Positions 2,336 through 38,837 of a DNA stretch of 38,837 nt are shown piece by piece; the first letter of the stretch is position 1, and each line of letters starts with the position of its first letter. The notes under the pieces are model-generated. The model was given only the letters and a program-made list of their open reading frames with translations, did not search any database and had not been told where the DNA came from. Source of the stretch: Candidatus Woesebacteria bacterium. GTDB lineage: Bacteria > Patescibacteriota > Saccharimonadia > Saccharimonadales > EFPC-124. The DNA is taken from assembly GCA_050115675.1 (NCBI GenBank), contig JASFQB010000005.1, positions 88,556 through 127,392 on the forward strand, given 5' to 3'. Position numbers and translations under genes: made by a program.

Positions 2336-5300
2336 ATGACTAAGCCGCCAATGGGTCCAAGCCCGTCTAATTCAGAACTACTACCACATGGCGAGTATCT
2401 ACATGAGGGGCGCCTTAAAATTGTTATTGCAGGACTTGATAAAAACGTGCGGGCCCATGCAATGGAGGCGGCTAATCAAAGGCTTTCTGATAAACTGGGC
2501 GAGAATGGTTTTAAGGGGTTTTTGAATAAAATTTGGCACGGTGGTTTTGCGCGTGAGCATTATTTGCTAAAGTATGCAAAAGAGGCAAAAGCAGATATTG
2601 TTGAGTCTGATAATTTATTTGAAAACGAAGGCTTAAGCGCGGAAGAGTACAAAGTTGCAACAACTTTACGCTTTGCCCATGAATATGACGGTCTTGTCCA
2701 TGAAGAAGTTGGTGAGCATAGACACGTAGTTGATCGAAATGAAGACGGTTCTGTAGATGTTGAGGGGTACGAGCTTAAGCATCACCTTTTTGATCTTGTG
2801 AGTCAATATGCGGCTGGTGAATTTGATGGTCCAACCCCTGACGATACTGAACGAAACTTTAACGAAGAGGCGAGTCGTCTTATAACTGAGCTTATTGAGC
2901 GAGGGGTGATTTCTAAGGACCATGTGGGTGAGGCCAGGGTTAGGCTAGATAATTTGTATCAAGTTAGTCAGAATGTGCGTGTAATGGTTGATCATGGAGT
3001 TGGTCTTGATGAGATCGCTCACAATACAGACATCGTGCTTGGAGAGGCTAAGGTGGGGGCAAGAACCGAAGCTGATACTACTCGAGCCGAGAGGATGGTC
3101 GAGAAGCTGTCAGGCAAAGCTTGGATAAATGAGGGTACAGTTATACCTGCCGTTACGATTGCTATGAGTACGGCCAATTTTGCTGCAAAGGCTGGGGCAA
3201 GTGCAGCCGTTGCAGCTGTTGCTGGTATTGCTGTTCCCGGAGCATTGGCCGGTGTTTGGGCGGGAATGCGCGAGTCGGCTAGGTCAAAAAGAGAACTTAC
3301 TGAGCTTAAGAGGGGTATTGAAACGGGAAAAATAGAAAACCCAGAGTCTAGTATTATGCGTTCGGCAGAATCCCTTATAGACCAGTTAGGCGTTCTTTAC
3401 GATGACAATGGTGAGCTTAGGATAAGCGACGAAGATAGTATGTACGGAGTGTTGGCGACGATTGCTGAATGCGATTCTCGTATTTATCTTACAAATGTTA
3501 GCGAGCCGTTAATATCTGATGCCTCTGAAATGGATCGTTATGATCTTTATGTTGCTTTGGCAAAGGCAAAGAGTGATGTGGCTGACTTTATTCAGATGTC
3601 AAGTGATTCTCAACTTAGACAATTGGGCTATGATGACGTTGCGATTGCAGAACTTAGGCAGAGTGATGATTTAGTAGATGCAATTTTGGCTCCGTATATT
3701 GATGCCGAGGATGGTGTTTTAAGTAAAGAGATTACAAGTAATGCGCGCTTAGAGCGCAAAGCTCATCTGAAAAGAGTGGGGCTTGCGGCTCTCCAGGGGT
3801 CCGCGTTAGGAATATTTGCTGGTGGTGTCTCGCAAGAGCTTTACTCTTTGATGAACGATGAGATTCAGGGTGTTGTCGAGGGGAGATTAAATGCTAACTC
3901 TGATGCCAGGCAGACATTTTATCAGAACTTTATGGGTCGTGGCGAGGGCTCACATGAGGCTTTTGCGGATTTAACTAACTCTAATCGTACTGAATCTATT
4001 GGTTCTAGAGTGAATATCCAATTGCCGGAGGGGTTCAGTTTTGTTCGAGAGGGAGATGTGGCAACAGTAACGGGTCTAGATGGTTTTCGTGTTGAAAATC
4101 TATCCTTAACTGAAGATGGTCATTTTACTCCTGCTGCCGAACAAGCACTTGCTTCAAAAGGACTAAACCTAATAAGGTTCGAAGATATTTCGCCTGTAAA
4201 TGTCGAAAAAGAAACCGTAGTTTCGGCCAGAGAGTTTTTAGACAATCATCAAGATAATGTAACAAAAGTAACGCGCGATTTTTGGTACACAAATGCCATA
4301 GAAGGGCGTGCTGATGGTGCAGAATTGGGTATTAGCCAGGTGCGCGTAGATGCTGACGGCAATTATGTCGTTGATTTATCTGGCATGGGCGAAAAATCTT
4401 TTACATCCAATGGTCAAGAAGTTGACTGGCGGCAAGCGGCAAGCGAAGGTAAGCTATCTTTGGTTCTAAGTGCATCCAGCGGGAGTCAGTCGGAAGCTAT
4501 TATGCTAGACATTGATCCGTCGGGTCCTGTTGTTGTTGACAAGGATAGCTTTGCGGCTTCGATGTTTAGCCAACATGATGGCGAAGCAGCGATTAAGGGT
4601 AAGTTTTTGGAAGTGGTTGAGGTTGCTGGTCAAGATGAAGATGGAGTTACGCATATACGGCCTTTGGCTACTGCCGTTGGCGAGGGAGCTGACGTTTTTC
4701 AGGATAAGCTGCAAGTTGTTGAAAACGTGCAGTCTACTTTGTATAGTGCGGAGTATACTGCCCCTGAAGGCAATGCATCGCAAGTTGCTATTCCGTATGT
4801 TTTGCCTGTTTCTATGACGGGCTGGCAGCCGAGTCTAGGTAGGCGCAAGGAGTCTGGTCAGCCACTGACTACCGAAAACTCTAGAACTGAGCCTTACGAT
4901 AACGAGGCTTATAAATCTATGCCTAATGGCTTTGATAATGAGAATTATTTTGGGACTGAGTTTGATAACTTTGAAGACGATGACTTTGATAACGAAGCTC
5001 GGGCAGAGGCAGAGGCAAAAGTAGAAACAAAAACGCCCGAGGCAAACCACCAGTCTGTAAATGTTCCTGAGCTGGTTGTAGAGTTGCCTCCAGATAAATT
5101 CCAGCCTGCTGAGAATTTTAGGCAGCAATGGGAGTTTGAGATGTCTCCTACTTTGGAAGAAAATCCCGATGCGCAATTAGATATTAACGAAGAACTAGAT
5201 CGTTACATAGCCGACCAAGTAATAAGACATGGTCGTGAGTATGCAAATAATATTGAGAGTCAAAATAATACAATTGGCCTAAGTGAGCTCATTACTTCTG

Positions 5301-6709
5301 ATACTGAAGCAATTGTCTGCGCAAAGATCGAGGTGAGTGACAGCGGCATTCCTATTCGCGACATTGTATCTGCATATGCAAGGCAGGGCGAGGAGGCTGT
5401 GAGTAAGTCAGTATTTTTGATTGATATTGCATGGTCTGCTGATGTTAGCTCCGATGAGGATGCTGCAGCGTTGTTTTCTAGGGTTAATTCTGAGTTTGTG
5501 CGTGCGCGAGCTGAGTTTCCAAGCCTTAAAGTTACCGCTTATGCTAGGGACTGGCATGAGCGTGGCTCAATGACAGAGAATGAACACGCAAAAGAACGCT
5601 ACGACGTGGCTGCATTTGCAGCAGAAGCAGCTATAAGTGCTGGAAAACAGAACTCACTTGGTGATCTGTTGATAGTCTCAAACGACGCCAATGCTACAAG
5701 CATACCTGCAGACTACCTAGGCTCTTATATTAAGGAATTTGAAGCAAATCCAGAAACAGACGTCTTTACGGGAGCTTATGTAAGACAGGGAGCTGCCACT
5801 CCGGACTATCCTGGCTATGATGTAGTTATGTCGTTTTTGTCTAATTTAGAGGTTGAGCATCAGCAAGACAATCCGGCAATGACTGGATACGTTATACAAA
5901 ATGGATCAAACATGGCGTTTAGAATGTCAGCATATGCCGCAGTAGGTGGTTGTGCGGGCGAGGCTGTTAGGGCAGACGACGAGATCTGCCAAAGGGTAGT
6001 TAACGCTCGTCAGGGGTCAATTGGCGGTAGGCCTGTTGTGCAGCACGTTGCGGATGCGCAAGTTACCGCTACGCTTGAAACTGATGAATCGTTAGAGCAG
6101 TATAGGCGTGGCAATTGGGTTGCAGAGCCAGTATACGCTGGTGAGCAAAATGGTGCAATGATCAACGCAGAAGACCCGCAAAGCGATCTTAGCGGCATAG
6201 TTGACCGTATTGAGCTCAACGTAAACTCGTACATTGCTAACATACCTAGCAAGCCTGAAATTGTCGAGGATGCCTTGGTTAAGACGTTTGGCCCAATAAG
6301 TGGAAGTAAGGCGGCCTTTGTAATGCGTTGGAGTAGGGATTATACTAAGGCGCAATTTAATTTAACAAATATTGGTCGTCAGATGTTGTTGCAAAAGTTG
6401 ACTAATCCGAACACCGAGGAACCTGCAGAGTTGCCCACAGTGGAGTCTGTTGCAAATGGTGGTGTCGAAATAGAAAATAGCGAGATTACTCCTAGTGTAC
6501 CAAGCGTCAAGCCTAAAATTGGCGATATTTTGGTGTCTTCCTCTGGCATGCGTCTTAAGATAGATGGCACCGATGGTCGTGGCATGACTTGGTTTAAGTC
6601 GCTTATGCCAGACAATATTACGCCTTATCCTACACAGCCCCAAATTCGAGTTAACGAGCGTAAATTATCAGACATGTTAGTTTCGGGCGAATATAAAGTT
6701 TTGCGATAA
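2336..6709 (+). CDS. Giant multidomain protein: Gly/Ala-rich hydrophobic segments, beta-rich middle, acidic linker, degenerate GT2/GT-A-like domain
   Basis: Uninterrupted 1457-aa ORF. Hydrophobic segments at about 3140-3268 and 3776-3829. GT-A-like motifs LLIVSNDANATSIPADYL and GSNMAFRMSAYAAVGG. Confidence 0.7.
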   Translation: MTKPPMGPSPSNSELLPHGEYLHEGRLKIVIAGLDKNVRAHAMEAANQRLSDKLGENGFKGFLNKIWHGGFAREHYLLKYAKEAKADIVESDNLFENEGLSAEEYKVATTLRFAHEYDGLVHEEVGEHRHVVDRNEDGSVDVEGYELKHHLFDLVSQYAAGEFDGPTPDDTERNFNEEASRLITELIERGVISKDHVGEARVRLDNLYQVSQNVRVMVDHGVGLDEIAHNTDIVLGEAKVGARTEADTTRAERMVEKLSGKAWINEGTVIPAVTIAMSTANFAAKAGASAAVAAVAGIAVPGALAGVWAGMRESARSKRELTELKRGIETGKIENPESSIMRSAESLIDQLGVLYDDNGELRISDEDSMYGVLATIAECDSRIYLTNVSEPLISDASEMDRYDLYVALAKAKSDVADFIQMSSDSQLRQLGYDDVAIAELRQSDDLVDAILAPYIDAEDGVLSKEITSNARLERKAHLKRVGLAALQGSALGIFAGGVSQELYSLMNDEIQGVVEGRLNANSDARQTFYQNFMGRGEGSHEAFADLTNSNRTESIGSRVNIQLPEGFSFVREGDVATVTGLDGFRVENLSLTEDGHFTPAAEQALASKGLNLIRFEDISPVNVEKETVVSAREFLDNHQDNVTKVTRDFWYTNAIEGRADGAELGISQVRVDADGNYVVDLSGMGEKSFTSNGQEVDWRQAASEGKLSLVLSASSGSQSEAIMLDIDPSGPVVVDKDSFAASMFSQHDGEAAIKGKFLEVVEVAGQDEDGVTHIRPLATAVGEGADVFQDKLQVVENVQSTLYSAEYTAPEGNASQVAIPYVLPVSMTGWQPSLGRRKESGQPLTTENSRTEPYDNEAYKSMPNGFDNENYFGTEFDNFEDDDFDNEARAEAEAKVETKTPEANHQSVNVPELVVELPPDKFQPAENFRQQWEFEMSPTLEENPDAQLDINEELDRYIADQVIRHGREYANNIESQNNTIGLSELITSDTEAIVCAKIEVSDSGIPIRDIVSAYARQGEEAVSKSVFLIDIAWSADVSSDEDAAALFSRVNSEFVRARAEFPSLKVTAYARDWHERGSMTENEHAKERYDVAAFAAEAAISAGKQNSLGDLLIVSNDANATSIPADYLGSYIKEFEANPETDVFTGAYVRQGAATPDYPGYDVVMSFLSNLEVEHQQDNPAMTGYVIQNGSNMAFRMSAYAAVGGCAGEAVRADDEICQRVVNARQGSIGGRPVVQHVADAQVTATLETDESLEQYRRGNWVAEPVYAGEQNGAMINAEDPQSDLSGIVDRIELNVNSYIANIPSKPEIVEDALVKTFGPISGSKAAFVMRWSRDYTKAQFNLTNIGRQMLLQKLTNPNTEEPAELPTVESVANGGVEIENSEITPSVPSVKPKIGDILVSSSGMRLKIDGTDGRGMTWFKSLMPDNITPYPTQPQIRVNERKLSDMLVSGEYKVLR

Positions 6710-18524: not shown

Positions 18525-21296
18525 GTGGCCATGGCGCAAAATACGGCAGCGCTTAAATTAAAGCGGCATTTTACAGAGGAAGATACGCATCCATACGACA
18601 TGCTGAGGTGGGTGACCACGGACTCAAAAATTACCAATCCAGGCACAGGAGAAACTGTTTTTGAGCAAAAACAGGTAAGCTTTCCGGATACCTGGAGTCA
18701 GAACGCAATAAACATTGTGGCTCAAAAGTATTTTTATGGCACCCCTGGTACGAATCAGCGGGAGTCGTCGTTGAAGCACCTTATTAACAGAGTAGCTGAT
18801 ACGATAACTACGCATGGTTTAGAGCAGGGTTATTTTATTGACGAAGGCGAATCTAAAATTTTTAGCGATGAGCTTAAGTACGTTTTAGCTACACAGCGCG
18901 CAGCATTTAACTCGCCCGTTTGGTTTAATATTGGTGCCCCTGATCGTGCACAGCAGGCTAGTGCGTGCTTTATCTTGAAGGTAGAGGATAGCTTGCCTTC
19001 TATTTTAAACTGGTACCGCGAAGAGGGAATGATTTTTAAGGGAGGCTCTGGTGCTGGCTTAAACATAAGTGAGATCCGATCATCCTACGAGCGGCTAAGT
19101 GGTAGTGGAGGAAAGGCTTCTGGTCCAGTTAGCTTTATGCGTGGCGCAGACGCATCCGCCGGTACTATTGCCAGTGGCGGCAAGACCCGTCGTGCCGCAA
19201 AAATGGTTATTTTAAACATTGATCACCCTGATGTAGAGAAGTTTATTTGGTGTAAGGCTCGCGAAGAGCGCAAGTCTCGCGTGCTAAAAGAAGCAGGCTT
19301 TGACATGGGGCTTAATGGTGAGGATGCGATTTCTATTCAGTACCAAAATGCTAACAACTCCGTACGCGTAACAGATGACTTTATGCGCGCAGTAGAAAGC
19401 GACGATGATTGGGGCTTAGTAGGCGTAAAAGACAAAAAAGTCTACAAAACAACGCGCGCTAAAGATTTGTTTCGTCAAATTGCCGAAGCTGCATGGGAAT
19501 GCGCTGATCCAGGTATGCAGTTTGACACAACTGTTAATGACTGGAATACAACTCCAAAAGCTGGTAAAATTAATGGCTCAAACCCCTGTTCTGAGTACAT
19601 GCACCTGGATAACACTGCATGTAACCTGGCCAGTTTAAACCTGCTTAAATTCTTAAATGACGATGGAAGTTTTGATTTTGAAGGCTTTAAGCATGTAACC
19701 CAAATTATATTTTTGTCGCAAGAAATACTGGTTGGTTATTCTAGCTATCCTACAGAGTCGATTGATAAGGGTGCGCGTGCGTACCGCGAACTAGGAATTG
19801 GTTATGCCAACTTGGGCGCAATGCTAATGGCTCGCGGTTTGCCGTACGACAGCGACGAAGGTCGTGCGTTGGCCGCTGCTGTAACTGCTTTGCTAACTGG
19901 ATATTCGTATGCAACAAGCGCCAAGATTGCAAAACGTGTGGGCTCGTTTGCGGGATATCACAAAGACAAAGAGGGTGCAATTCGCGTACTTAAAAAACAT
20001 CGCAATGCTGTTGATGACATAAACTCAAAATATGTTGAGAAAGACTTGCTAAAAGCTGTGTCCGAGGTTTGGAACGAGGCTGTAGAGCTTGCCGAAATGT
20101 ACGGAGTGCGCAACGCCCAGGCATCTGTTTTGGCACCCACGGGCACAATTGGTTTAATGATGGACTGCGACACTACCGGTGTTGAGCCTGATTTTGCGTT
20201 GATTAAGCACAAAAACTTAGTTGGCGGTGGCTCTATGGCGATTGTTAACCAAACGGTTTCGCGTGCGCTTAAAACTTTGGATTACAACAAAGAACATAGT
20301 AAAGAAATTGTTGATTACATTCACGAGCACAACACAATTGTGGGCGCCCCGCATCTTAAAGATGAGCACCTTGGCGTGTTTGCCTGTGCAGTTGGTCAAA
20401 ATTCAATTCATTATTTGGGCCATGTTAAGATGATGTCTGCGGTCCAGCCGTTTATATCTGGTGCAATTAGCAAAACTGTCAACATGCCACAAGAAGCAAG
20501 CGTAGAAGATGTTGAACAGCTTCATATGGATGCATGGAAGATGGGAATTAAGGCTATTGCAATTTATCGCGACGGTAGTAAAGTGGGACAGCCTTTAAGT
20601 AGTAAAAAGCAAAAAGAGGCAGCCAAAAAAGATGCACCTCAACAAGAGCCGGTGGTAAGTTTGCCGGTAGTAGTAAAAGGCGCAGTTAAGCGGGAGTTGC
20701 CACGAATTAGAAACAGTCGGACTTTTGAATTCCACGTTAGCGACTTAAAGGGTTATGTAACGGTTGGCGAATACGAAGACGGTACTCCTGGCGAAGTGTT
20801 CTTTAGGATCTCAAAACAAGGATCAACCTTGTCTGGAATAATGGATAGTTTGGCAATTAGCGTTAGCCATGGCTTGCAATACGGTGTACCTCTAAAGAGT
20901 TACGCCAAGGCAATGATTAATACAAGTTATGCGCCGGCTGGCATTACGGATGATCCAGAAATCCGAACGGCTTCAAGCATCACAGACTATATCTTTCGTC
21001 GTTTAGCGCTAGAGTACCTAAATTTTGACGACAGGCTAGAGTTGGGGTTGGCATCTTTTGATGATCTTGAGGCAGAAACTCAAGCAAATCAAATAAGTTT
21101 ACTTGAGCAGCCGGTCGTTGGTCAAAAAAACACACCAATTTTAGAGCAAAAAACTGTAGAAGTTAAAATGGCAACGGCGAAGATCGAAGTTAGTGCTTCG
21201 GATTCACCATTGTGCAGTAATTGCGGAAACATCACAAAACCGTCTGGTAGTTGTCATGTTTGCACAAGTTGTGGTTCTACTACAGGTTGCAGCTAA
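18525..21296 (+). CDS. nrdJ: Class II (adenosylcobalamin-dependent) ribonucleotide reductase
   Basis: FNSPVWFN, SACFI, NPCSEY, APTGTI, GAISKTVN, YRDGSK and a C-terminal Cys-rich tail. SD AAGGAGG at 18514-20; start is GTG 18525 or ATG 18531. Confidence 0.96.
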   Translation: MAMAQNTAALKLKRHFTEEDTHPYDMLRWVTTDSKITNPGTGETVFEQKQVSFPDTWSQNAINIVAQKYFYGTPGTNQRESSLKHLINRVADTITTHGLEQGYFIDEGESKIFSDELKYVLATQRAAFNSPVWFNIGAPDRAQQASACFILKVEDSLPSILNWYREEGMIFKGGSGAGLNISEIRSSYERLSGSGGKASGPVSFMRGADASAGTIASGGKTRRAAKMVILNIDHPDVEKFIWCKAREERKSRVLKEAGFDMGLNGEDAISIQYQNANNSVRVTDDFMRAVESDDDWGLVGVKDKKVYKTTRAKDLFRQIAEAAWECADPGMQFDTTVNDWNTTPKAGKINGSNPCSEYMHLDNTACNLASLNLLKFLNDDGSFDFEGFKHVTQIIFLSQEILVGYSSYPTESIDKGARAYRELGIGYANLGAMLMARGLPYDSDEGRALAAAVTALLTGYSYATSAKIAKRVGSFAGYHKDKEGAIRVLKKHRNAVDDINSKYVEKDLLKAVSEVWNEAVELAEMYGVRNAQASVLAPTGTIGLMMDCDTTGVEPDFALIKHKNLVGGGSMAIVNQTVSRALKTLDYNKEHSKEIVDYIHEHNTIVGAPHLKDEHLGVFACAVGQNSIHYLGHVKMMSAVQPFISGAISKTVNMPQEASVEDVEQLHMDAWKMGIKAIAIYRDGSKVGQPLSSKKQKEAAKKDAPQQEPVVSLPVVVKGAVKRELPRIRNSRTFEFHVSDLKGYVTVGEYEDGTPGEVFFRISKQGSTLSGIMDSLAISVSHGLQYGVPLKSYAKAMINTSYAPAGITDDPEIRTASSITDYIFRRLALEYLNFDDRLELGLASFDDLEAETQANQISLLEQPVVGQKNTPILEQKTVEVKMATAKIEVSASDSPLCSNCGNITKPSGSCHVCTSCGSTTGCS

Positions 21297-35477: not shown

Positions 35478-35768
35478 CTATTTACCGACGTTGAGTTGGA
35501 ATCTGGAGCTGTACCAAGACTCATTATTCGACGGCTCCCTCCCCGTAGCCCCATGATCACAAACCTTCACAGCCCCAGCTTCTATTAAGCTTTTTTCTAT
35601 TGGCTTAGCAACTTCCTCAGCTCTGTTAGTAGCAAAAGGGTTGCCGTTAAACGCTATGGTTAAGAATCCCCAATACACCAACCAACCCACAACAACAGGC
35701 ACTAATACTATTAATAGTATCTTGAACGAACACTTTAAAATATTTTGTATAGGTTTACTTTTTATCAT
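35478..35768 (-). pseudogene. Array paralog A, C-terminally truncated membrane-anchored protein
   Basis: 96 aa versus 189-191 aa for its paralogs; ends QLNVGK* where paralog B continues QLNVGKDQ. Confidence 0.75.
35560..35629. repeat. 70-bp direct repeat shared by paralogs A and C (copy 2 at 36778-36847)
   Basis: Manual alignment gives 69/70 identical. Confidence 0.9.
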
Positions 35769-36413: not shown

Positions 36414-36983
36414 TTATTTTTTACGTTCGGGTAGGCTTACAGACAGCCCGAAAGTAGTACTGCCATCCTCCAGCCCGTCCGCATTAGTTTGGGCGCAATT
36501 TCCATTAGAGGCGGATACGTCATAATGTGTAAGTAAGTTAATGTTAAAAGCTATCCCTATGTCTCCGTTGTCAAGATTGGAGTATTCACTAGTCTTGCTT
36601 GCGCCAGCGTAGGAATAATAATCGTTTTCTTGCGTAAAGGCATCAAGGATATATCCATTATCCTTGGCTGCGGTGGATACTGTCTCTTGAGTTTCTTCCA
36701 CTGTGCCGTCAATTTTAAACGTTGCACTATACCAAGGTATTCTATTTGTAGCTTCGTATCCAGTGGCTCCTCTGCTGCAAACCTTCACAGCCCCAGCTTC
36801 TATTAAGCTTTTTTCTATTGGCTTAGCAACTTCCTCGGCTCTGTTAGATACAAAAGGATTATTATACTGTAAAAATAATGACACAAAAGGAGTAATCACA
36901 ATAACAGCAAGAACACACGTAGTAATTACTACAGCTCTACCTATTGAGGTTTTTAAAATTGGTGTGGTTAGTGGGTTTTTCAT
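36414..36983 (-). CDS. Array paralog C, membrane-anchored exported protein
   Basis: Same architecture; core NRAEEVAKPIEKSLIEAGAVKVC; C-terminal SLPERKK. Confidence 0.8.
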   Translation of the reverse strand: MKNPLTTPILKTSIGRAVVITTCVLAVIVITPFVSLFLQYNNPFVSNRAEEVAKPIEKSLIEAGAVKVCSRGATGYEATNRIPWYSATFKIDGTVEETQETVSTAAKDNGYILDAFTQENDYYSYAGASKTSEYSNLDNGDIGIAFNINLLTHYDVSASNGNCAQTNADGLEDGSTTFGLSVSLPERKK

Positions 36984-37039: not shown

Positions 37040-37615
37040 TTACTTTCTGGGAGGAAACGACAAAGTAAGTCTAACGCCAGTATGATTAGTATCCCCAACT
37101 AGATTAATTGGACTACCTCCACTAAATGGACATGGCAAGTTCTTAGCCTCAGTGTTCGTATATAAATCTATAGACAATCTTTCGTCACCTTCTTTGAGAT
37201 CTTTATCTATACTCGATCGCGTGCCATCGTAGCTAAATACAGATTCGTAAAGCTGCGCACCAAGACTTAAGCTAAAACCACTATCCTTTGTAGCTTTCGT
37301 TATTTCGCTATAGACTTGGTCTTTACCGACATTGAATTGGTAGTAACCTGAGTAATACGGTGTATGCGTATTATCCAAAGGATTCGTCCCATTACTCTCA
37401 CTACTACAAACTTTTGTAGCTCCAGCTGCAAGCAATGATTTTTCTATGGGTGTTGCTGCGTCTTTGGCAGGATTGGAAATGAAAGGATTATCACTAGACA
37501 CGGCAAATACAAATCCCCAATACACCAACCAACCCACAACAACAGGCACTAATACTATTAATAGTATCTTGAACGAACACTTTAAAATATTTTGTATAGG
37601 CTTACTTTTTATCAT
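37040..37615 (-). CDS. Array paralog D, membrane-anchored exported protein
   Basis: Same architecture; core NPAKDAATPIEKSLLAAGATKVC; C-terminal SFPPRK. Confidence 0.8.
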   Translation of the reverse strand: MIKSKPIQNILKCSFKILLIVLVPVVVGWLVYWGFVFAVSSDNPFISNPAKDAATPIEKSLLAAGATKVCSSESNGTNPLDNTHTPYYSGYYQFNVGKDQVYSEITKATKDSGFSLSLGAQLYESVFSYDGTRSSIDKDLKEGDERLSIDLYTNTEAKNLPCPFSGGSPINLVGDTNHTGVRLTLSFPPRK

Positions 37616-37633
37616 GTTGTTGGTGATTATATA
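37512..37633. repeat. 122-bp direct repeat, copy 2
   Basis: Matches 35665-35786 with one mismatch. Confidence 0.92.
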
Positions 37634-37700
37634 TTAGTTAACAAAAAATCGCAAAAACCCCATTATGCCTATTGCGCGCGTGGGGAGCCTGTGCTAAAGT
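37626..37700. promoter_or_regulatory. Divergent promoters for the paralog array (-) and the cutinase gene (+)
   Basis: On -: TTGCGA(37654-49)-N17-TATAAT(37631-26). On +: TTGCGC(37672-77)-N17-TAAAGT(37695-700) with TGn extension. Confidence 0.65.
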
Positions 37701-37798: not shown

Positions 37799-38837
37799 AT
37801 GCAAAGGCCTAAATGGCAAGCATTTTTACTTAGTATGGTAATGCTTGCTTGCTCGCTAATGGCTGTAGTGCTGCCTGCCAGTCCTGCACATGCGGACCCA
37901 GGTTGCCAGCGTGAGGGCTACTATGTAATTTATGCACGTGGTGCTACGGCGCCGTTGTTTTCTGCCGAGCAAAAAGAAGCCCTAAAGCATATTCACCATT
38001 TGTTGCCTGGTGCGGCCTGGGCTGAGCTTGGGAATATTGATGGCACAGTGCACGAAGATACAGACCCAAAAAACAACGTGCCCGACAGCAAGGTTAATGA
38101 TGAATACCCAGCATCAGGCTTTACCTATCCTATTAGTGTGAACATTGGTGTTAACGAGCTTGTAAAGCATCTTAACGATCGCTACAACCGCGCGGCCTGC
38201 GCCACTGAAACGCTGATTCTTGTGGGATATTCTGAAGGCGCTAATGTTGTTGGCGAAGCTATGAATCGTTCTGACTTGTCTAGCAGTGCAAAAACGCATA
38301 TTGGTTATGTTGCACTTTTTGGTGACCCTAAGTTTAAGGGGTACTTCTCTGGAGTTCCAGCTTGGGCAAAAGGAACTGCCAAATCCGACCATAGCAGTGG
38401 GTTTCTTTTTGCTCGTAACCCCTATGTTCCCGATTGGCTGACAGGCCGGCTGGGAAGTTGGTGCGATGATGAAGATGGCTTTTGTAATGGATATCCTTGG
38501 ATGGGCAACCACGGCTCCATCTACCGCGAATACTGGTTTAGGCAATCTGCTGCTACCATTGTGGCTATGGCAAAGCTAAAGAAGTATCAGCTCACTAATA
38601 GTCACTCGATCTCGTTATTTACAACTCAAGAAATTGCTCTTTTAAGTTCAGAATTGGCAAAGTACGGCACACTGCCTTTTGCGGTTCCTGCCGAAATTGC
38701 GTCTAAGGATTTCCCCGGCGACCCCTTCCGCCCCACCGCCATCAAACGCGACTCGGGCAATATGGAAGTCTTTTACAAAGACACCGCAGGTAACCTTATC
38801 GCACGCGGCTGGAGCGTAACCAGCGGCTGGAACTACC
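37799..38837 (+). CDS. Secreted cutinase-family alpha/beta hydrolase followed by a lectin-like beta-propeller repeat (3' incomplete)
   Basis: Manual translation, open to the window end. SD AGGAG 37786-90; signal peptide ending PAHA-D; C..VIYARG, GYSEG (38225-39), VALFGDP, WCDDEDGFC, NHG; then NMEVFYKDTAGNLIARGWSVTSGWNY. Confidence 0.85.
   Translation, partial: MQRPKWQAFLLSMVMLACSLMAVVLPASPAHADPGCQREGYYVIYARGATAPLFSAEQKEALKHIHHLLPGAAWAELGNIDGTVHEDTDPKNNVPDSKVNDEYPASGFTYPISVNIGVNELVKHLNDRYNRAACATETLILVGYSEGANVVGEAMNRSDLSSSAKTHIGYVALFGDPKFKGYFSGVPAWAKGTAKSDHSSGFLFARNPYVPDWLTGRLGSWCDDEDGFCNGYPWMGNHGSIYREYWFRQSAATIVAMAKLKKYQLTNSHSISLFTTQEIALLSSELAKYGTLPFAVPAEIASKDFPGDPFRPTAIKRDSGNMEVFYKDTAGNLIARGWSVTSGWNY

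Follow-up and report, generated by a model that had tools for sequence, protein, structure and literature searches.

The window, a 38,837-nucleotide stretch of the 1.18 Mb genome G000 (10 contigs, 99.65% complete), ends with contig C5, inside a gene that starts at position 37799 on the forward strand and encodes a predicted secreted cutinase. Because this reading frame is open to the contig end (37799-38837, +), the gene is missing from a stop-to-stop list of open reading frames. Divergent from it lies an array of four small genes, and the features of the two are as follows.

37799..37894, + strand: Sec-type signal peptide, residues 1-32, with cleavage predicted after AHA and before D (by eye; the leaders of relatives are similar)
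37895..38593, + strand: CE5 cutinase-fold domain (Pfam PF01083, triad conservation and fold comparison)
38231, 38474 and 38510, + strand: catalytic triad S145, D226 and H238, respectively (alignment)
Within the cutinase domain: cysteines 36/134 and 222/229 (sequence); oxyanion positions A49 and E146 (alignment)
38594..38710, + strand: linker, unrelated to that of the paralog on contig C1 (DNA comparison with the start of C1)
38711..38837, + strand: first of seven PLL-like propeller repeats, its 127 nt identical to the C1 paralog
37626..37654, - strand: candidate sigma-70 promoter for the partner array, 10/12 match
37040..37615, - strand: partner gene 1 (family A), 191 aa, N-terminal membrane helix and α/β outer domain
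36414..36983, - strand: partner gene 2 (family A), 189 aa
35806..36381, - strand: partner gene 3 (family A), 191 aa, its DNA 87% identical to that of gene 1 across 187 nt
35478..35768, - strand: partner gene 4, truncated, 96 aa

The first-pass annotation had described a signal peptide ending PAHA-D, and the translation indeed carries this leader, with the predicted cleavage before D33 as judged by eye. It had also called for the rest of the gene, which extends about 840 nt past the end of C5 and was found intact as P0283, a 625-residue protein from another assembly and in the same 90% cluster that is identical to the window protein over all 346 residues. P0283 consists of the CE5 cutinase domain followed by seven repeats, so the C-terminus is the anticipated repeat propeller, and its last 48 residues are identical to the end of contig C6; the same two-domain layout is found in P0178, an independent homolog. 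A frameshift beyond the window is ruled out by the full length of P0283. A word-based search with the 346-residue fragment returned itself and the C1 paralog, and nothing else. The C5 and C1 cutinases are 44% identical in the enzyme domain and near-identical in propeller DNA, which accounts for the break in the assembly at this point. In the wetland metagenome run X1, possibly the origin of this DNA, a 946-nt record of depth 119 starts at 38711 and continues beyond the contig, compared to a depth of 48 for the unique part of the gene, and the other entry into this record is the linker of the C1 paralog; the small-share runs X2-X4 hold only short pieces of the locus. The central part of P0283 may therefore be a blend of the C5 and C1 propeller copies. 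The gene lies downstream of rpmE-prfA-prmC with no phage lysis cassette, and a scan of viral sequences gave two distant matches only. Directly after its end, on contig C6, is a secreted-looking α/β hydrolase (L007:5503-6606, - strand; Abhydrolase_6, 38 bits).

The seven Trp repeats of P0283 are each about 45 residues long, six of them recognised by sequence pattern and the seventh, around residue 367, by eye. This propeller matches Photorhabdus PLL2 (E 9.8e-13) and three more PLL-family entries, with tryptophans recurring in the alignments, and scores 37.5 bits against the NCBIfam PLL-type profile, far under its cut-off of 350. The earlier view of the repeats as a lectin-like propeller therefore stands, as a PLL-type one, but not as a fucose lectin in the AAL/RSL sense: Fungal_lectin PF07938 has no match in P0283 at E<=0.05, and reaches 14.4 bits (cut-off 25.3) on the last repeats of a paralog. 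The Photorhabdus lectins PLL, PLL2, PLL3 and PHL are seven-bladed and share the seven Trp-rich repeats, whereas here the propeller is the C-terminal module of an enzyme. PLL lectins are described as binding fucose as well as O-methylated sugars, among them a mycobacterial disaccharide (PMC6943638). A stand-alone, divergent propeller-repeat protein of 355 residues without evident leader is encoded on contig C4 (L006:5761-6825, + strand), inserted with the EF-G gene on one side and genes that lead to EF-Tu on the other.

The enzyme domain scores 54.1 bits against Pfam Cutinase PF01083 (cut-off 25.9), and every cutinase hallmark listed by the first-pass annotation is present in the translation, namely C36, ARG (followed by A49), GYSEG with S145, LFGDP, C222-x3-D226-x2-C229 and H238. 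An AlphaFold model covering residues 34-264 (pLDDT 81) is closest in fold to acetylxylan esterase II (AXE II; 1bs9, Z 19.5, rmsd 2.6, 189 aligned residues), followed by two fungal cutinases (Z 18.9 and 17.4), the T. reesei cutinase (Z 15.9), mycobacterial MSMEG_6394 (3aja, Z 15.8) and mycobacteriophage D29 LysB (3hc7, Z 15.6, rmsd 3.0, 172 aligned), with the remaining hydrolases at Z 12.8 or less. Profile and structure searches thus agree on a CE5 assignment. Fold and Ser-Asp-His triad are common to CE5 cutinases and acetylxylan esterase II (1bs9, 2czq, 7cc4) and to mycobacterial cutinase-like proteins (3aja, Rv3802c), as are the four cysteines and the GxSxG and GDP motifs; the protein here differs in an Ala/Glu pair in place of Ser(Thr)/Gln, in its fused propeller and in its linked partner array. 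For one mycobacterial cutinase-like (CE5) protein, phospholipase A activity is on record (PMC2625445).

GYSEG had been noted as a small variant of the common motif. It is present as described, but it is not isolated, being paired with a Ser to Ala change at the second oxyanion position, so that both residues are substituted in the window copy (S49A and Q146E). As a Ser or Thr together with Gln is conserved in cutinases (PMC8577158), the active site of the window copy is changed; the C1 paralog retains the canonical pair (ARGS, GYSQG). Across 43 aligned rows the triad S145/D226/H238 is kept in all 43, while the oxyanion pair is S/Q in 39, A/E in three, a gap in one and mixed in none. The A/E rows are the window protein, P0188 and P0189, relatives at about 50% identity, and they cluster on the cutinase tree, suggesting the pair may reflect a single event. 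The loss of both canonical oxyanion side chains could mean that the window copy is a weakened or dead enzyme serving as an adhesin or decoy, with the C1 paralog as the active one. We give this very little credence, as the triad is intact and the A/E pair recurs in two relatives, and the all-or-none distribution of the pair suggests a retuned site, though possibly one event. A natural Ala/Glu oxyanion variant of CE5 is in itself one product of the analysis.

The first-pass annotation had named mycolates among the lipid esters that such an enzyme might attack. A LysB-like esterase (for LysB substrates see PMC7246905) would strip mycolates or other wall esters and open the actinobacterial envelope, with the partner acting as a tether or folding helper. 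LysB and MSMEG_6394 are indeed among the six CE5-like fold matches, PLL-family lectins bind the mycobacterial disaccharide mentioned above (PMC6943638), mutations in the mycolic-acid pathway protect Gordonia from a Saccharibacteria parasite (PMC11880426), and members of the enzyme's clade occur in Amycolatopsis and Streptomyces. The fold is nevertheless nearer to the lid-less AXE and cutinases (Z 19.5-17.4) than to LysB, and mycolate as the specific substrate is possible but unsupported. Sequence likeness between D29 LysB and the window cutinase is slight (phmmer E 0.048), and what they share, a cutinase-like α/β hydrolase with a GXSXG serine, is common to all CE5 members; the protein here is cellular, bears a signal peptide, is fused to a propeller and lies outside a phage lysis cassette. 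An enzyme directed at a lipid absent from its producer would moreover leave the diversified partner arrays and orphan copies described below unexplained, and we consider this reading unlikely.

Each of the four family A paralogs beside the window's cutinase gene has one membrane helix and an α/β outer domain. DNA comparison shows the array genes to be mosaics, most clearly the truncated gene 4, which combines gene 1 (99% over 122 nt) with gene 2 (94% over 83 nt). The promoter match is not significant alone, as eight sigma-70 sites were found compared to 6.8 +/- 2.9 in shuffles. Genome G000 holds seven family A copies, all divergent to cutinases, four at the C5 locus and three at C1, and none elsewhere beyond these two arrays. 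The family comprises 406 clusters at 50% identity. No partner family has a convincing Pfam, NCBIfam or PHROG counterpart: partner gene 1 is without a Pfam or NCBIfam match, and a Zot-like PHROG match of a partner (E 2.5e-4) spans the membrane helix region. The partner model gave matches to LppA (LppA / DUF4853-like fold; Z 8.0, rmsd 9.5, 127 aligned) and PA1624 (Z 7.6, rmsd 3.3, 107 aligned), both within the range of common arrangements, and START-domain matches in Foldseek (TM about 0.2) were rejected. Complex prediction for the cutinase domain with the partner gene 1 ectodomain gave a score of 0.01, which is uninformative either way. Partner gene 1 is a candidate cognate immunity protein.

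Two further gene types show what the partner follows. Five genes of G000 run into the propeller repeat at contig ends: the cutinases of C5 and C1, and three genes with another head, at the ends of C4 (L005:7607-8665, + strand) and C7 (L004:7689-8645, + strand) and at the start of C9 (L003:2-991, - strand). This second head is about 200 residues long, with an invariant E-x-D-F, two more Asp and Cys residues, in a protein of secreted type. The C4 protein is whole in P0286 (581 aa), the propeller of which is 69% identical to that of P0283. The E-x-D-F head has no match in PDB sequences, Pfam or NCBIfam, no Atlas match above 0.88 and no profile likeness to the cutinase; neither it nor family A was found in viral contigs. 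It is a candidate new enzyme or toxin domain. Beside the three genes are arrays of a further family, C (L005:5633-7381, + strand; L003:1069-2432, + strand; G000:C7:99674-100458, - strand), small single-helix membrane proteins of which 9/9 copies in G000 lie beside E-x-D-F genes only. Families A and C are unrelated (hhalign 0.9%). Since propellers of the same type are accompanied by family A where the head is a cutinase and by family C where it is the E-x-D-F head, the partner tracks the head and not the propeller. The presence of a non-esterase head on the same propellers also speaks against the LysB-like explanation. The first-pass annotation's single-gene reading was right as to an intact gene of Saccharibacteria for a secreted cutinase-fold enzyme with a lectin-type propeller, but missed the divergent array and the five-locus modular system, and these favour an effector accompanied by an array of immunity genes.

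The association extends beyond G000. Of the 19 genomes of the family, eight have a cutinase match (E below 1e-70) and all eight contain family A somewhere. Cutinase queries recovered ten unbroken genes of the close clade; nine of these have family A or B no more than 2.5 kb away, and the tenth is situated some 300 bp from where its contig ends. A single broken gene is without such a neighbour. Families A and B are related (hhalign 92%), though most family B matches had served as seeds for that profile. When metagenomes were scanned using only family A, three loci were recovered, two of them having a divergent cutinase. At L151:3549-6597 the divergent neighbour of a family A gene encodes a secreted protein that ends in an SGNH/GDSL lipase, and the N-terminal part of this protein resembles, by eye, that of a C-terminal cutinase in G001. 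The other family genomes contain 12 family A loci: six adjoin a lipolytic gene or a piece of one, four are orphans and two are at contig starts. The E-x-D-F head occurs in 4/19 family genomes with family C adjacent in 4/4 and tails drawn from the same pool, and family C is also found in two genomes without a match to the head. A common partner family beside two unrelated lipase folds is odd, as it would be unexpected for a strictly cognate inhibitor. Nor do enzymes and neighbours clearly diverge together: A and B partners are intermingled on the cutinase tree, and enzyme and neighbour identity correlate weakly (Spearman 0.41, p 0.053, seven pairs, one close pair driving the value).

A survey of the order's 401 genomes gave cutinase matches in 52 and family A in 14; in four genomes, in addition to the orphan loci above, family A occurs without any cutinase match. 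We sampled 20 cutinase loci across the score range from the 43 order genomes outside the family; a related small membrane protein (family D) is adjacent in 13/20, nine of these being profile seeds and four not, and the rest comprise two lookalikes by eye and five loci without a partner. Families B and D are related (hhalign 96.5%). Other Saccharimonadales families have a cutinase-vWA-PKD gene with a single co-oriented partner, for which a chaperone or subunit role fits equally well. At L215-L227, L234, L035 and L038 the cutinase-vWA-PKD protein, which in many cases ends in a membrane helix, is encoded downstream of the small membrane-anchored gene, and these pairs are often beside yidC/jag-like or glycosyltransferase genes; at L216 the pair is beside PlsY- and CdsA-like genes, as judged by eye.

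Outside the order, the isolate Amycolatopsis sp. NPDC051102 encodes a cutinase and, divergent to it, a family A gene (L034:3121-5851); GC is lower in this stretch, and a DNA methylase is adjacent. Family A is found in 2/147 Amycolatopsis genomes, the second case being weak, beside a kinase-like gene and with no lipase adjacent. The Amycolatopsis and Streptomyces pluripotens (P0168) enzymes fall within the 24-row clade (support 100/95) that holds the enzymes of the family, and the simplest reading would be transfer into Actinobacteria. At 74 distant cutinase loci of other bacteria no partner-type neighbour was detected (0/74), with profiles derived from Saccharibacteria that could miss remote forms. 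The tails of relatives vary, including other propellers, CBM-like and Ig-like repeats, B_lectin, PF26607 and FG-GAP, and heads are also swapped. These carbohydrate-binding-type tails (B_lectin, PF26607, FG-GAP), with acetylxylan esterase II as the best fold match, would suit an enzyme that deacetylates or deacylates cutin or the polysaccharides of plants, fungi or host surfaces, with the propeller as its carbohydrate-binding module. Such a polymer de-esterase has no role for a conserved adjacent membrane protein that is absent at the distant loci, and we regard it as improbable.

The lipid metabolism of the producer bears on a further possibility. No ketoacyl synthase match was found in G000, in agreement with the earlier claim that fatty-acid synthesis is missing, and PlsX, PlsY, PlsC, DegV/FakB and AMP-binding ligases are likewise without matches in this genome; each of the profiled families had matches in between 6 and 14 of the 14 control genomes. 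As genes for fatty-acid synthesis, activation and acyl transfer are all without matches, feeding on free fatty acids is unlikely, and the proposed harvesting of lipids in that form is not borne out. The enzyme might instead free or transfer acyl lipids which the membrane-anchored partner catches for the cell's own membrane. The missing synthesis would fit, as would the PlsY- and CdsA-like genes beside the L216 pair in one other genome and a weak START-like likeness of the partner (Atlas TM 0.57, under the bar; Foldseek TM about 0.2). START domains have a long C-terminal grip helix, whereas the partner model ends in a strand; no route for using free fatty acids was found in G000, and the separate partner family of the E-x-D-F head is left unexplained. 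We consider this form of lipid acquisition quite unlikely.

We therefore prefer, at a probability of about 0.5, a reading in which the locus encodes an effector, secreted via Sec and directed to a glycan, that attacks lipids and is accompanied by immunity genes in an array, similar to staphylococcal TslA/Til. The leader would export the protein, and the seven-blade PLL-like propeller would bind a surface glycan of the target cell, concentrating the enzyme there. The cutinase domain would then hydrolyse acyl esters of envelope lipids, the likeliest substrate being glycerolipids in the membranes of the host or of competing epibionts. The divergent membrane-anchored proteins, on the outer face of the producer, would inhibit the enzyme. 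The immunity protein TipC is also membrane-anchored. The producer would need such an inhibitor because a membrane of probably host-derived lipid bars discrimination between self and target, and attack on the host envelope is compatible with a requirement for immunity. Extra and orphan partner copies, shuffled by recombination, may cover the variant enzymes of neighbours. Effector heads and propellers are traded as modules. As in polymorphic toxin-immunity systems, a variable effector domain, cutinase or E-x-D-F head, sits on a shared targeting module, and the adjacent small gene is specific to the effector type and has tandem and orphan copies; against that model, the enzyme is N-terminal behind a Sec-type leader and no secretion-marker Pfam domain is present.

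The closest known parallel is TslA with TilA/Til1 (DUF576) of Staphylococcus aureus, where the lipolytic domain is also N-terminal and the adjacent paralogs are described as attached to the outer face of the membrane, variable in copy number and shuffled by recombination, with mosaicism reported for the til1 immunity genes of this lipase (PMC10730906). TslA depends on a type VII system and helical partners, whereas the protein here has a leader of Sec type and ends in a lectin-type propeller, the enzyme belongs to CE5 and the partner to an unnamed family with a membrane helix. Toxicity and inhibition are shown for TslA (PMC10730906). TelC/TipC of Streptococcus intermedius likewise pairs an extracytoplasmic enzyme toxin with a dedicated immunity protein, as proposed here, but TelC is a lipid II phosphatase exported by a type VII system (PMC6193138).

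Tentatively, we extend this reading to Saccharibacteria of the family, which may possess a toxin-immunity system without an injection machine, in which effectors exported by Sec, namely an SGNH lipase, a lipase of cutinase fold and a new enzyme domain, are directed to host or rival cells by exchangeable lectin propellers and are each neutralised by an immunity family of their own, the pair having been acquired by some Actinobacteria. If true, and within the reach of our searches, Patescibacteria would thereby gain their first described antagonism system, and the E-x-D-F head would be a new toxin domain. The family of every assigned domain and the logic of toxin and immunity are known already; none of the matches listed describes, for Patescibacteria, a CE5 head that combines Sec export and lectin-type targeting with unnamed partner families bearing a membrane helix. 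Within the open article texts searched, no work on Saccharibacteria cutinases or toxin-immunity pairs was among the matches listed, and papers naming both cutinase and Saccharibacteria concern, by their titles, plastics, wastewater, soil or biofilms. The word 'cutinase' is absent from the article texts, as distinct from supplementary gene tables, of PMC10633639, PMC11880426, PMC13278184 and PMC13622651 and from the first 300,000 characters of PMC3482391. Hosts are described as deploying secreted Esx effectors against Saccharibacteria in a 2026 preprint, which mentions neither cutinases nor lipases (PMC13622651).

The locus bears on how Saccharibacteria harm their hosts and obtain lipids, and it supplies an enzyme that is soluble and expressible, together with candidates for its inhibitor and for its targeting lectin. 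Attack, self-protection and the range of targets thereby become accessible to separate experiments that need no culture of the organism. The result would reach past one genome, since 52 of the order's 401 genomes have cutinase matches, in many cases accompanied by a partner gene, and it adds two unnamed membrane-protein families and one secreted domain without a database match.

Other parts of the genome gave minor observations. Within the window, a 1457-residue open reading frame at 2336-6709 (+ strand) has no Pfam match at E<=0.05, and a class II (B12-dependent) ribonucleotide reductase is encoded at 18525-21296 (+ strand) with NrdR upstream. Contig C10 of G000 (4687 bp) has a GC content of 60%, compared to 43-45% elsewhere, and phage-tail-like repeats by eye, and may be a contaminant or a mobile piece.
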